From Alphaproteobacteria bacterium (GTDB lineage Bacteria; Pseudomonadota; Alphaproteobacteria; SP197), in NCBI GenBank assembly GCA_964291415.2, contig OZ219917.1:352001-416000 (forward strand): a stretch of DNA of 64,000 nt, in the 5' to 3' direction. The stretch's first letter is position 1. Each line of letters begins with the position of its first letter. Below, piece after piece: positions 34,229 to 39,008 of this stretch. The position numbers and the translations under genes were made by a program. Under the pieces are notes generated by a model. That model was not told where the DNA came from. It saw nothing but the letters and a program-made list of their open reading frames with translations, and did not search any database.

Positions 34229-34468
34229 ATGAAAGTGACAATCAAGATCGACTGTAAGCCAGAGGAAGCCCGTGCATTTCTGGGCATGCCGGACATCCGT
34301 CCCCTGCAGGACGAGTTCATGGCCGGACTGAAGGAGCGCATGAACGAAGCACTGTCCCGGTTCGATCCCGAAGCCATGCTGAAGGAATGGACCGGGGCGT
34401 CCGGTGACGGCATGAACCAGATGATGGACATGTGGCGCCACATGCTGAACCCGGCGAAGCGCGACTGA
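34229..34468 (+). CDS. DUF6489-family small protein
   Basis: MKVTIKIDCKPEEARAFLGMPD..PLQ. Confidence 0.8.
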   Translation: MKVTIKIDCKPEEARAFLGMPDIRPLQDEFMAGLKERMNEALSRFDPEAMLKEWTGASGDGMNQMMDMWRHMLNPAKRD

Positions 34469-34475
34469 CACCCGG

Positions 34476-34491
34476 TGTTTCACGTGAAACA
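34476..34491. promoter_or_regulatory. parS centromere site 1
   Basis: Perfect 16-bp TGTTTCACGTGAAACA immediately before mnmE. Confidence 0.95.
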
Positions 34492-35799
34492 GTGACCATC
34501 TTCGCGTTGGCCACGGCCCCTGGCCGGGCCGCCATCGCCGTGATCCGGGTGTCGGGCCCGGCTGCCGGAGAGGCCGTGAGGCACCTCACCGGCAGGGATT
34601 TGCCTGCCGCCCGGCAGGCCGTCCTGCGCCGCCTTCAGGACAGTCGACCGGGAGAGGCGATCGATCAGTCCCTGGTTCTGTGGTTTCCGGCGCCCGAGAC
34701 GGTCACAGGCGAGGATGTGGCGGAATTCCACGTCCATGGCGGACGCGCGGTGGTGTACGGCGTTCTCGATGCCCTTGCATCCGTGCCCGGCCTGCGGCCC
34801 GCCGAACCGGGAGAATTTACCAGGCGGGCCGTGCTGAACGGCAAGATGGACCTCGTGGAGGCGGAGGCGGTAGCGGATCTCGTCGCCGCGGACACGTCAC
34901 GCCAGCGCCATCAGGCTCTCGATCAGCTCCAGGGGTTGCATTCGGCTCTTTATGACGGGTGGCATCAGCGCCTCGTCGACGCCATGGCGCGCCTCGAGGC
35001 CGTGATCGACTTTCCCGACGAGGAATTGCCGGCGGGACTCCTCGATGACAACCGGGCGGCGGTGACCGCCCTCGAAGGGGAAGTTCGTGCCCACCTCGAT
35101 GACGGACGCCGCGGCGAACGGCTGCGCGAAGGTCTCAGTGTCGTCATTCTCGGGGCACCCAATGTCGGCAAGTCGAGTCTTCTCAACGCTCTCGCCGGAC
35201 ATGACGCGGCCATTGTCTCTGCGGAGGAGGGGACGACACGGGACACGGTCGAGGTGACCATGGACATTGCCGGCTTTGCCGTATCCCTCGTCGACACCGC
35301 AGGGTTGCGAGAGGTTCCGCAAGGCGTCGAGGGAGAAGGGATCCGGCGGGCGCTGAAGAGAGCGGAGACGGCCGACCTGACGCTGCTCGTTGCCGATGCC
35401 AGCCGTTGGGACGAGACCTGGCCCCGCATCGAGTCCCACAGCGACGGGAATGCGCTTGTCGTGGCCGGAAAGGCCGACCTCGCCCGTCCTCCCCCGGGTA
35501 TTCCGGGCCTGTCGGCGAAGACCGGAGAGGGGATCGATCATCTCATCGAGACCATGGCGCAACACTTCCGGCTCGCCTGGCAGGGCGCGGCGCTGGCGCC
35601 GTCGCGGACCCGGCACAGGGCTGCTCTTCTCCAGGTCGCAGACGCCCTGGCGCGCTATCGGAACCTGGATGCAGGCGACGTCACGCTGGCAGCCGAGGAC
35701 CTGCGTCTGGCGGCAACGGCACTGGGACGGCTCACCGGCAGGGTGGACGTGGAGGACCTTCTCGACGTGATCTTCTCGGAGTTCTGCATCGGCAAATGA
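34492..35799 (+). CDS. mnmE: tRNA modification GTPase MnmE
   Basis: TIFALAT, TGEDVAEF, GAPNVGKS, GTTRD, DTAG and C-terminal FCIGK. Start is approximate. Confidence 0.97.
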   Translation: MTIFALATAPGRAAIAVIRVSGPAAGEAVRHLTGRDLPAARQAVLRRLQDSRPGEAIDQSLVLWFPAPETVTGEDVAEFHVHGGRAVVYGVLDALASVPGLRPAEPGEFTRRAVLNGKMDLVEAEAVADLVAADTSRQRHQALDQLQGLHSALYDGWHQRLVDAMARLEAVIDFPDEELPAGLLDDNRAAVTALEGEVRAHLDDGRRGERLREGLSVVILGAPNVGKSSLLNALAGHDAAIVSAEEGTTRDTVEVTMDIAGFAVSLVDTAGLREVPQGVEGEGIRRALKRAETADLTLLVADASRWDETWPRIESHSDGNALVVAGKADLARPPPGIPGLSAKTGEGIDHLIETMAQHFRLAWQGAALAPSRTRHRAALLQVADALARYRNLDAGDVTLAAEDLRLAATALGRLTGRVDVEDLLDVIFSEFCIGK

Positions 35800-35805
35800 G
35801 TGTTT

Positions 35806-35950
35806 GGGACTTATATGCTTGACTATGCAGTCAAGCATCGTTTTGACGGTCCATGGCCTTCGGCCACTTTGCCCCGTCCAGACACCCCAATCCCGGAGGC
35901 CAGAATGTTGCGGGCCGCGTTCAGGTCCGCGTTGTCCATGTAGCCGCAAG
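35806..35950 (-). ncRNA. Candidate omegaRNA/reRNA scaffold overlapping the tnpB 3' end
   Basis: Nested stems GACGG/CCGTC (35845-49 / 35874-78) enclose TGGCC-N3-GGCCA (35854-66). A perfect 10-bp hairpin ATGCTTGACT-N4-AGTCAAGCAT lies at 35815-35838. The position is expected for TnpB guide scaffolds; the 5' boundary is a guess. Confidence 0.5.
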
Positions 35951-37034
35951 TTACACAGAGATAGTTCGATTGGGACAATCTGGACCTGCTGTCCACAGTT
36001 CCACACGATGAACACCGTTGGGACGTGTACCGGGAAGGCACCTTGACGACGCTGGTCTTGTACTCAAGGCATTGTCGCAGGATGCCCCAGCCCGTATCCA
36101 GAATCTTCCTGTTGAGACCGCTCTTCTGCCTGACGTTCCTGCCGGGCTTCTCGACGGTCCCCCCGGCCGACTTCGTCATGTTGTCGATCTTCAGATCCTC
36201 GACACAGACGGTGGAATAGTTGTCGGCAATCCTGCGGCTGATCCTGTGGGACCAGTTTTTGCGGACATTGGCTCTCTTGCGTTCGAGCCTCCGGATCCTC
36301 TGCCGGGTCTTCAGTCTGCGCTTCGCTCCCTTGCGCTGTCCGCTTTCCTTGTTCCTGAGACGGTTGATCCTTCTGTCGATGTCTGCGGTGTCGGACTTGT
36401 GGAGGATGTCTTCGTTGCCTTCCAGATCGACACATGCCACTTGACCGACGTTCATGTCGATGCCGATGGCCGTCCCGTCGTCTTGGCGTTCCGGGACATC
36501 GACCTTGTACGTGACGGTGGCATACCACTTGCCGCAGATTTCCTTGAGAACGGCCTTGCACGGAGCATCTCCAGAATACGGGTTTCCGCCCTTTCTGCGA
36601 AGAACCACAGCGCCGATCCTCGGAACGTGAAGCCTGTTCCCCCTGATCCCGATGTTCTCCGGAATCGTGAAGGAAGGCATCGAACCGTATTTCGACTTGA
36701 AATCCGGCCTCTCGCCATGTCCCCTGAAATAGGCGGCCCATGCGTCCGACTGATACTTGAGAACGTACCGGGTCACATTGAACGCATACTGAGAGAGCCA
36801 GTCGACGTCAGCCCGAAGTTTGGTGAATTCCTTTCCAAGAGAGAAGAAAGACGTCGACGGACTGTCGCCACCGTTCTCGACTGCATTCCTGTAGGCAGCA
36901 TTGTGCCTCGCCAGAATCTCGTTCCACACGAAACGGCAGGCACCCGCCTGGGCGGCGAGCCTTCTTGCAGTCGTCCTGTTGCCGGGGAGGACCCGGTAGA
37001 CGATGTTTCGGTGTGCCAAAACCATGTGGTGCAT
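35823..37034 (-). CDS. tnpB: RNA-guided endonuclease TnpB
   Basis: AGACRFVWN, RuvC-I IGIDMNV, RuvC-II VEDL, zinc finger TSQRCSSCG...CVTCG and Ruv[14 protein letters not shown]. All three acidic catalytic residues are present. Confidence 0.96.
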
Positions 37035-37089
37035 CTACTCCAAAGCGCTCCCGATGTCGATCTGCGTGGTCAAGTACATGGGTCCCAAG

Positions 37090-37105
37090 TGTTTCACGTG
37101 AAACA
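37090..37105. promoter_or_regulatory. parS centromere site 2
   Basis: Perfect TGTTTCACGTGAAACA upstream of mnmG. Its first 5 nt belong to the target-site duplication. Confidence 0.95.
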
Positions 37106-37145
37106 GCGCTTTGACGCACCGAAGCGCCATCACTACATTCCAGGC

Positions 37146-39008
37146 ATGACGCAGACCTTCGTTCACGATGTCATTGTCATTGGCGGCGGGCATGCCGGTA
37201 CCGAGGCGGCCGCGGCCGCGGCGCGATGTGGCGCTGCGACGCTTCTCGTGACCCTGCGCCGTTCGACCATTGGCGCGATGTCGTGCAATCCCGCCATCGG
37301 TGGTCTCGGCAAGGGGCACCTGGTGCGCGAGATCGATGCCCTGGACGGTGTCATGGGCCTGGCCATCGATCGCTCGGGCATCCAGTTCCGTCTGCTCAAC
37401 GCCAGCAAGGGGCCGGCCGTTCGCGGCCCCAGGGCGCAGGCGGACCGGTCTCTCTATGCGCAGGCGGTCAGGGAACTCCTTGAAAACCAACAGGAACTTG
37501 ACATCCTCGAAGGCGAAGCCTCCGACTTGGTTGTGAACCATGCCGGAGAGATTGCCGGTATCAGGCTTGCCGACGGAAGGCTCTGTCGCGCTCGCGCGGT
37601 GATCCTCACCACCGGAACCTTCCTGCGCGGGATGATTCACATCGGCGACGAGCGCTGGCCGGCGGGGCGGATCGATGATGACGCCGCCGTGGCCCTCGCC
37701 GCGACGCTCGAAAGGCACCGCTTTTCCCTTGGAAGGCTGAAGACGGGCACGCCGCCGCGAATCGATGGGCGGACCATCGACCATGCCGCCCTGGAGGTTC
37801 AGCCCGGAGATGATCCGCCGCAGCCGTTCTCGTGGCTGACCGGCGCCATCACCGTGCCGCAGGTGCCCTGTCATGTGACGGCCACCACCAAGGCCACGCA
37901 CGACGTCATTCGCGCCAACCTGGACCGGGCGCCTGTCTATTCCGGCCGCATCGACGGCGCCGGCCCCCGGTATTGCCCGTCCATCGAGGACAAGGTGGTG
38001 CGGTTTGGCGACCGGGAGAGCCACCGGGTCTTTCTGGAGCCCGAGGGGCTCCGGACCGCGACGGTCTACCCGAACGGCATCTCCACGTCGTTGCCGCGCG
38101 ATGTTCAGGAGGCCTTTATCGCCACGATTCCAGGACTTGCCAGGGCGCGCATCCTGCGTCACGGCTATGCCATCGAGTATGACTACGTCGATCCGCGTCA
38201 GCTCGATCACACGCTGCAGACAAGACGGATTCCAGGCTTGTTCCTGGCCGGCCAGATCAACGGCACCACGGGATACGAGGAGGCGGCGGGTCAGGGGCTG
38301 GTCGCCGGAATCAACGCGGCGCGCTGTGCGGGAGGCCTTCCAGGCGTGCGGTTTGACCGGGCAGAAGCCTACCTGGGCGTCATGATCGACGATCTCGTCA
38401 CAAGGGGGACCGCCGAACCCTACCGCATGTTCACGAGCCGGGCGGAGTATCGTCTCGTTCTGAGGGCCGACAATGCCGATTTGCGTCTTACCGCAAGGGG
38501 CCGCGAGGCCGGGTGTGTCGGAGAGACCCGATGGCGCGTCTTCTTGCGACGCCGACAGGAGGTCGGGGCGGCCATGACGCGGGCTTGCGCGCTGCAGGTC
38601 AGTCCAGACGAAGCGCGCGCCGCAGGGTTCGATGTCAATCGGGATGGCCGTCGGCGAAACCTGTTCGACCTCGCGGCTTCGGCGTCCGGGGACGATCGAC
38701 GACTGCTGGCCCTGTGGCCGGAGATTGCGACGTGGCCCGAGCACGCCATGGACCAGGTGAGAATTGCCGGTCGCTACCGGGGTTACCTGGGTCGCATGGA
38801 GGCGGACATTGCCGCCTTCCGCCGAGACGAGGCCCTCGATCTTCCTCCCGGTCTCGACTACGCCCGCATTGGCGGACTGTCTGCCGAGATGCGCGAGACG
38901 ATGTCAGCCGCCCGCCCGGCCACGCTTGGACAGGCAGCACGGCTTCCCGGGGTGACGCCTGCCGCCCTGCAGGCCCTGCTCCGCCACGTCAGGCGGGATG
39001 CGGCGTGA
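37146..39008 (+). CDS. mnmG: tRNA uridine 5-carboxymethylaminomethyl modification enzyme MnmG (GidA)
   Basis: [30 protein letters not shown] and [13 protein letters not shown] motifs. Confidence 0.98.

Follow-up and report, generated by a model that had tools for sequence, protein, structure and literature searches.

The 64,000-nt window analyzed here (contig OZ219917.1, positions 352,001..416,000 of the forward strand, from an alphaproteobacterium; all coordinates below are positions within this window) contains a 1281-bp element at 35806-37086, located between the host genes mnmE and mnmG. The only long open reading frame (ORF) within the element is an intact tnpB gene transcribed leftwards. 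TnpB is the ancestor of Cas12, and its known role is to guard IS605 and IS607 elements against the loss that follows scarless excision. The element described here has inverted ends and is flanked by an 8-bp repeat, and its features are listed in Table 1, with the 5' and 3' ends of the element designated as the left end (LE) and right end (RE) respectively.

Table 1. Features of the element and its surroundings: feature, position in the window, strand and evidence (TIR, terminal inverted repeat; TSD, target-site duplication; TAM, target-adjacent motif; MFE, minimum free energy).
mnmE, upstream host gene	34432..35799	+	NCBIfam MnmE equivalog, 532 bits
Presumed omegaRNA guide segment, flank read out of RE	35790..35805	-	inference from TnpB biology
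TIR, 3' (RE) end	35806..35830	.	repeat finder; exact point at which homology to the G019 copy ends
Presumed omegaRNA scaffold, 3'-terminal 214 nt of the element, including the end of tnpB	35806..36019	-	RNA-library contig, fold, conservation
Hairpin, perfect 9-bp stem and 6-nt loop	35814..35837	-	sequence reading; present in the MFE fold
tnpB	35823..37034	-	403 aa; intact RuvC D193/E279/D370 and C4 zinc finger
TIR, 5' (LE) end	37062..37086	.	repeat finder; comparison with the G019 copy
LE-side copy of the 8-bp TSD	37087..37094	.	AAGTGTTT on +; AAACACTT on the tnpB strand
Candidate TAM: TG on the tnpB strand, directly 5' of the LE-side duplication	37095..37096	-	flank comparison of 18 cassettes
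mnmG, downstream host gene	37146..39008	+	NCBIfam MnmG equivalog, 788 bits

The inverted arms identified by a repeat finder (35804-35830 and 37062-37088) are 27 nt long and 78% complementary, and inspection of the sequence shows that the 25-nt terminal arms match at 19/25 positions, with all six mismatches being transitions. The element is flanked by GAGTGTTT (35798-35805) on one side and by the LE-side 8-mer on the other, which match at 7/8 positions; they differ at one base, the second of the mnmE stop codon, a TGA at 35797-35799 that overlaps the left copy of the repeat. An earlier note on this DNA had described an intact tnpB with all three RuvC acidic residues as the sole gene of the 1281-bp segment, bounded by these ends and by this imperfect repeat. 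All three points hold, the gene by ORF, domain and alignment evidence, the ends by both the sequence and the repeat finder, and the repeat by the empty sites described below. The alternative offered in the same note, TG...CA ends with a 6-bp AGTGTT duplication, is not supported by the other copies, which end in GGG/CCC and have 8-bp duplications. The ends GGGACTTAT and GGGGATTAT would fit the ISfinder end motif ggnnatTAT, on which an assignment to the ISNwi1 group would rest; literature searches for definitions of ISNwi1 and of the IS1595 groups returned only an indirect source. A perfect 16-bp palindrome, TGTTTCACGTGAAACA, is present at 37090-37105 and is kept in 11 of 12 relatives at the same place, directly after the mnmE stop. 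The cassette is inserted in the left arm of this palindrome, which the duplication has rebuilt next to mnmG. The palindrome may act as a regulator site or as a terminator stem for mnmE-mnmG.

The 8-bp repeat is a genuine TSD. The 3' ends of mnmE were taken from 21 relatives within the genus, none of which has an insert of more than ~300 bases before mnmG. Of 12 junctions inspected, 9 run straight from the mnmE stop into a single 8-mer and on into CACGTGAAACA. The closest relatives thus have the 8-mer once and lack the insert, which identifies the repeat as a true duplication of the target. The empty site, whose recovery the earlier note had proposed, is also present in contigs from three public runs, in which 35797/8 is joined to 37087/8 and 1289 bases are skipped, corresponding to the element plus one copy of the 8-mer. 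The same runs also contain the element on other contigs with other flanks, copies in different flanks being present in runs X2, X5/X13 and X22 (four public runs were compared with the stretch; X22 covers no other part of it, which is not a sign that the rest is absent). The 8-mer was therefore single before the insertion, and the element is mobile. Most of the public runs that contain part of the stretch are labelled as sponge or marine metagenomes, which suggests that the genus may be sponge-associated.

The host genome contains a single copy of the element. A second copy, in genome G019, is 96.5% identical and ends at the same GGGAC/GTCCC within different flanks, with the mnmE genes of the two genomes being only 90% identical; locus L091 of a metagenome-assembled genome (MAG) represents the same insertion as the G019 copy. 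This is the only other assembled copy of the sub-family, and it lacks a duplication. However, genome G006 carries ~590 bp more at the G019 insertion site, which we explain by an adjacent deletion that removed one of the G019 flanks and makes the missing duplication uninformative. A contig scan beyond the G019 insertion yielded one 30% relative, and a scan of metagenome contigs only relatives at ≤35% identity.

Related cassettes are found throughout the genus, in which four TnpB sub-families share the architecture of inverted ends and duplications. These include family B, whose members have ~40% protein identity to the TnpB described here and are present in five copies in the host genome with the same type of ends. 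We compiled 26 unique full-length TnpB loci of the genus, each with at least 310 nt of flank, from the sets L001-L038 and L110-L139, excluding partial matches and matches near contig ends. Copies with different flanks and fresh 8-bp duplications, which the earlier note had named as support, are abundant, with 8/8 matches at 14 loci, 7/8 at four (including the element in the window) and 6/8 at three. Automated counting gave 8 perfect and two 7/8 duplications among the 26 loci in a first run (0 and 5 of 650 in a mismatched-flank control), and 12 and 4 in a second run (4 and 16 of 650 in the control); strict pairing of ends by regular expression missed most copies and local alignment often picked spurious arms, and the duplications beyond the automated counts were read by eye from aligned flanks. 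The duplicated 8-mers of the 18 sites with 8/8 or 7/8 matches are all different. The cassettes have GGG...CCC inverted ends throughout, with a systematic difference between LE (GGGGATT...) and RE (GGGACTT...). Outside of the genus, a class-level search (401 genomes, E≤1e-60) identified one further genome, G420, from another family of the class, with a copy that has the same type of inverted ends and no duplication, and a phylum-level search with query P0021 (401 genomes) gave no match except to the host genome itself.

In the host genome a family-B cassette with a perfect duplication, ATCGACAA (G000:C2:84502-87624; L189:502-3624), is broken by a ~1.8-kb IS110-family element (PF01548 and PF02371), inserted in the most conserved part of the tnpB DNA, the RuvC-III motif region, which is ~83% identical between TnpB families. 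IS110 elements pick their targets by sequence, and this one may thus target tnpB itself. A 298-bp element (G000:C4:1169275-1169572; L188:275-572) resembling a miniature inverted-repeat transposable element (MITE) has inverted ends of the same type and flanks ACTTCATT/ATTTCATG (6/8); it lacks tnpB and retains a ~65-nt stretch similar to the omegaRNA region, the non-coding 3' part, of family-B cassettes. This single copy could not be oriented and is not a control for flank bias. Finally, TnpB-like DNA matches are present within ~1-1.5 kb upstream of mnmE in three relatives (L046, L045 and L048, in G001:C175, G016:C68 and G005:C2 respectively), which suggests that TnpB cassettes have inserted repeatedly in the origin-proximal neighbourhood of mnmE.

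Transposases of the IS1595 family are common in these genomes. Of 23 genomes of the genus, 18 encode DDE_Tnp_IS1595 (PF12762); the host genome encodes two such proteins, both of which also carry the IS1595 zinc ribbon (PF12760). Seven complete DDE elements, 2.5-3.9 kb in length, contain passenger ORFs and have GGGG...CCCC inverted ends with duplications matching at 6-8 of 8 positions at AT-rich sites. An IS1595-family transposase with matching TIRs had been named in the earlier note as support, and the PF12762 and PF12760 elements fit this description, with end identities of 23/24 between the family-B LE and the DDE element IS#1 of the same genome, 16/19 between the RE of the element in the window and the DDE elements of G019 and G002, and 23/26 between the family-D LE and the G002/G019 elements. 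G019, which hosts the other copy of the element, thus carries an end-matching DDE element. No tnpB gene lies inside a DDE element in any of the 12 DDE regions fetched. The Y1 transposase (Y1_Tnp, PF01797), a link to which the earlier note had named as a sign of the contrary, is absent from all six genomes searched (the host genome, G019, G004, G012, G013 and G014), and control genomes respond to the same search. At one locus of the host genome (L187; G000:C2:46358-49518 and C2:49528-51995), two IS1595-family elements are arranged head to head just 9 bp apart, both with passenger ORFs, the larger of them encoding a predicted lipoprotein of 464 aa that contains an HExxH motif and matches no Pfam family.

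The TnpB protein is intact in its domains and catalytic residues. It matches PF12323 (HTH_OrfB), PF01385 (OrfB_IS605) and PF07282 (Cas12f1-like TNB) above their cut-offs, and NCBIfam guided_TnpB over residues 19-379 (225 bits against a cut-off of 100), and it aligns over its full length with the ISDra2 TnpB chains 8h1j/8exa (E ~3e-21). In an alignment of 12 proteins, D193, E279 and D370 and the zinc-finger residues C341, C344, C360 and C363 are invariant. That the catalytic and zinc-finger residues are kept between sub-families with only ~40% identity points to selection for nuclease activity. In a quick tree with some long branches, 27 TIR-type TnpBs together with 10 database homologs separate from five hairpin-type TnpBs with full support (100) in the Shimodaira-Hasegawa-like approximate likelihood ratio test (SH-aLRT); database homologs number ~600, including ones at 45-58% identity.

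The 3' region of the element is a candidate for an omegaRNA. A 229-nt contig from an RNA library (depth 4) comprises the 3'-terminal 214 nt of a copy with 98% identity, followed by 15 nt of its own, different flank (covering 36019-35801 plus 10 nt), a size that hints at an omegaRNA with its guide. The 3' 230 nt folds better than all of 200 shuffled sequences (z = -2.85), and conservation of the region extends over the TnpB sub-families and includes one compensatory pair (GC:10/CG:6). The hairpin near RE, which contains the tnpB stop codon, is presumed to be the last stem of the omegaRNA scaffold, and the presumed guide starts with the RE-side copy of the duplication.

A one-sided footprint is found in the flanks of the cassettes. 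When the 18 cassettes with duplications matching at 7/8 or better are oriented by tnpB, the base directly 5' of the LE-side duplication is G in 18/18, and the base preceding it is T in 11/18, against genome backgrounds of 0.325 for G and 0.178 for T. At the mirror position, +1 beyond the RE-side copy, only 7/18 have C. The three loci with 6/8 duplications, read by eye, have G at -1 too. The seven DDE-only elements have G at -1 in 3/7 (transposase orientation) or 2/7 (other strand), and the duplicated 8-mers are AT-rich in cassettes and DDE elements alike. The asymmetric G fits guide-directed cutting of empty sites, and would not be predicted by a DDE target preference that is symmetric; with the RE flank as the guide, the footprint would sit exactly where a TAM must be.

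Taken together, we conclude with a good deal of confidence that the segment 35806-37086 represents a mobile but non-autonomous IS1595-family cassette, with a TnpB/omegaRNA module as its sole cargo and probably mobilized in trans. The proposal of the earlier note that DDE-transposon ends have packaged tnpB for movement in trans is thus supported by the ends, the duplications, the co-occurrence and the lack of Y1 TnpA. Two features expected of a non-autonomous IS1595 derivative, the 8-bp duplication and ends like those of the DDE_Tnp_IS1595 elements, are present. An IS1595-family DDE transposase supplied in trans would bind the inverted ends and insert the cassette via 8-bp staggered cuts. As to the nuclease, whether TnpB is active, uses a guide from the RE flank with G (usually TG) as its TAM, and cuts the empty allele, is a question on which we judge the chances to be about even. 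In such a mechanism the omegaRNA would be the last ~214 nt of the element, read through RE into ~15 nt of flank, such that the guide begins with the duplicated 8-mer, and the TAM would be the G (usually TG) just ahead of the LE-side duplication. The empty allele (TG, the 8-mer and the downstream flank) would be a full target and be cut, and the occupied allele would be spared, with ...CCC preceding the RE-side copy and only 8 nt matching at the LE side. Through recombination, cutting of the empty allele would then help the cassette to be copied or retained, as has been shown for IS605 TnpB, and only insertions beside a TAM in the right orientation would drive into empty alleles and persist. 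The more encompassing proposal, that a transposase-less TnpB/omegaRNA clade parasitises IS1595-family (Merlin-superfamily) DDE transposases in trans, with an active nuclease, a guide starting at the duplication and a G/TG TAM outside of it, is put forward tentatively, at somewhat below an even chance.

Several observations weigh against this interpretation. The host genome has only the one copy of the element, and its own IS1595 elements match the element ends less well (14/19, with a 5-nt difference in spacing). The link to the DDE enzyme is drawn from end similarity, duplication length and co-occurrence. G013 has at least three TnpB cassettes, two of them with perfect 8-bp duplications, and no PF12762 match, so that these cassettes may have outlived their presumed transposase or have come without it; the fragmented G016 has no PF12762 match either. 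The G019 copy, the only other assembled one of the sub-family, lacks a duplication, and five of the 26 genus loci have none or an unclear one. The RNA contig has a depth of 4, derives from a metatranscriptome possibly holding DNA, and has termini that are no proof of RNA ends; RNAalifold of 16 3' ends gives a weak consensus (covariation term -1.31), and an Rfam scan of 35000-38000 at E≤1 found no omegaRNA family. The DDE control for the footprint is made up of only seven elements with somewhat different ends, and a transposase specific to the cassettes, with its own asymmetric choice of target, is an alternative to the TAM.

Different accounts of the element have to be weighed against these data. 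An ordinary IS200/IS605 element of the IS1341 group, moved as ssDNA by a Y1 TnpA, could be imagined from the perfect hairpin at RE and from the ~36%-identical relatives on Acetobacteraceae plasmids, which are classical, one adjoining tnpA and one having hairpin ends; the inverted repeat would then be a by-product of subterminal hairpins and the 8-mer a target plus a look-alike end, which one insertion alone cannot separate from a duplication. Across the 18 sites, however, the 8-mers are different each time and are therefore not part of the element, and no conserved 4-5-nt target abuts LE, where only the G (TG) 9-10 nt away is conserved. LE lacks a matching hairpin, the ends are inverted rather than direct copies, and PF01797 is missing as described above. 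None of the IS200/IS605 features (absence of TIR and TSD, an available Y1 transposase, and a fixed 4-5-nt word at LE) is seen in the 18 cassettes with 8/8 or 7/8 duplications, and this account, already contradicted by the evidence, is scarcely credible. We consider it rather unlikely that the cassette at this locus is a dead relic that arrived by transfer, with a decaying LE and no resident enzyme to move it. Its single copy, the different end spacing of the two resident IS1595 elements, the mutated base in the duplication and the transitions that distinguish its LE from that of G019 within the first 12 nt are as expected of a relic; against this, the reading frame is unbroken and shares 96-97% identity with copies elsewhere. 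These copies are located at different sites in runs in which the empty site is present too, and the sub-family has therefore moved recently. In any event, a relic would bear on present activity only, and not on the identity of the element.

A more plausible account, if still a doubtful one, accepts mobilization by a DDE enzyme and has TnpB as a passive passenger, or put to another use such as regulation, with the -1 G reflecting an asymmetric target preference of the transposase. The systematic difference between LE and RE makes an asymmetric transpososome conceivable, the AT-rich 8-mers common to cassettes and DDE elements are a transposase trait, and TnpB cleavage is a prediction here. Restorative homing has also been argued, in the relevant passage of a 2026 review, to be of small benefit to cut-and-paste DDE transposons (PMC13565253). 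Set against this account are the invariant catalytic and zinc-finger residues of such divergent sub-families, the presence of a -1 G in 3/7 or 2/7 of the DDE-only elements for the two orientations, and the position of the footprint, exactly that required of a TAM if the RE flank is the guide.

TnpB genes within DDE transposons have been described before. The premise of the earlier note that the usual TnpB carriers lack TIRs and TSDs is correct for the IS1341-type TnpB-only elements, according to the passages on these in two sources (PMC3627910, PMC13565253), but is dated as a general statement, since TIR-bounded, DDE-associated TnpBs were reported in 2023. The main text of that study recognizes six DDE-associated branches, DDE-1 to DDE-6, all with inverted terminal repeats, and includes solo TnpBs whose ends are almost the same as those of elements encoding a transposase, from which mobilization in trans was inferred (Altae-Tran et al. 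2023, PNAS, PMC10691335). The cassettes described here share with these a prokaryotic TnpB within inverted repeats, a TnpB 3' end near the transposon end, and the solo form. IS630 is the sole DDE family named in that main text, and the 2026 review, where it lists DDE carriers, names ISL2, IS630 and IS1031 (PMC13565253); IS1595 is named in neither place. A further difference is that here tnpB is never inside a DDE element (0/12 regions), and a survey of gene neighbourhoods would therefore not link it to the transposase. A full-text literature search, judged by title and the start of the abstract, found nothing linking TnpB to IS1595; the branch lists in the supplements of PMC10691335 lay outside that search, and the clade may already be among its DDE branches. 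What is new here is IS1595 as a TnpB carrier family, the purely in-trans relation and the TAM-like flank asymmetry, the kind of element having been known since 2023.

The cassettes combine properties of three known systems. With the IS1341 group of IS200/IS605 elements they share a single ~400-aa tnpB (helix-turn-helix, RuvC and zinc finger), a structured 3' region extending to the element end and a hairpin close to RE, and they differ in having inverted ends, 8-bp duplications, no fixed LE target word and no Y1 TnpA in the genomes searched. IS1595-family elements are described, in the part of the source that deals with them, as having 8-bp duplications and a zinc ribbon plus DDE domain, with GG ends in Merlin, the eukaryotic sister of the family (PMC8101967). 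The cassettes resemble IS1595 insertion sequences, their passenger-gene forms and mobile insertion cassettes in their GG-starting ends, 8-bp duplications and AT-rich targets, and differ in lacking a transposase and in having an RNA-guided nuclease and its guide RNA as the passenger. The third is Fanzor1, a TnpB-type nuclease found in eukaryotic TIR/TSD DDE transposons, often in non-autonomous copies, as the pertinent section of PMC3627910 has it. The likeness lies in a nuclease carried by duplication-making DDE transposons that are frequently non-autonomous, although the present case is bacterial with a TnpB of standard size. In Fanzor elements the TAM is said to include the 5' duplication (PMC13565253), whereas the candidate TAM here is outside of the duplication, and the target would begin with the 8 nt of the duplication. 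Merlin and IS1595 are not mentioned in the two Fanzor papers searched.

The genus provides a compact and recently active system, with short cassettes, defined ends and natural empty and filled alleles, as well as candidate partner transposases in the same genomes and a one-sided footprint that predicts a TAM. In-trans partnerships of this type, in which tnpB and transposase are never neighbours, can escape surveys based on gene neighbourhoods. If the TAM reading is correct, these would be small TnpB nucleases with a very short TAM, RNA-guided homing would work together with a duplication-making DDE transposon in bacteria, and TnpB activity could be read naturally from flank asymmetry in genomes. 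As the sites of insertion hint, the nuclease may still shape where the cassette persists.

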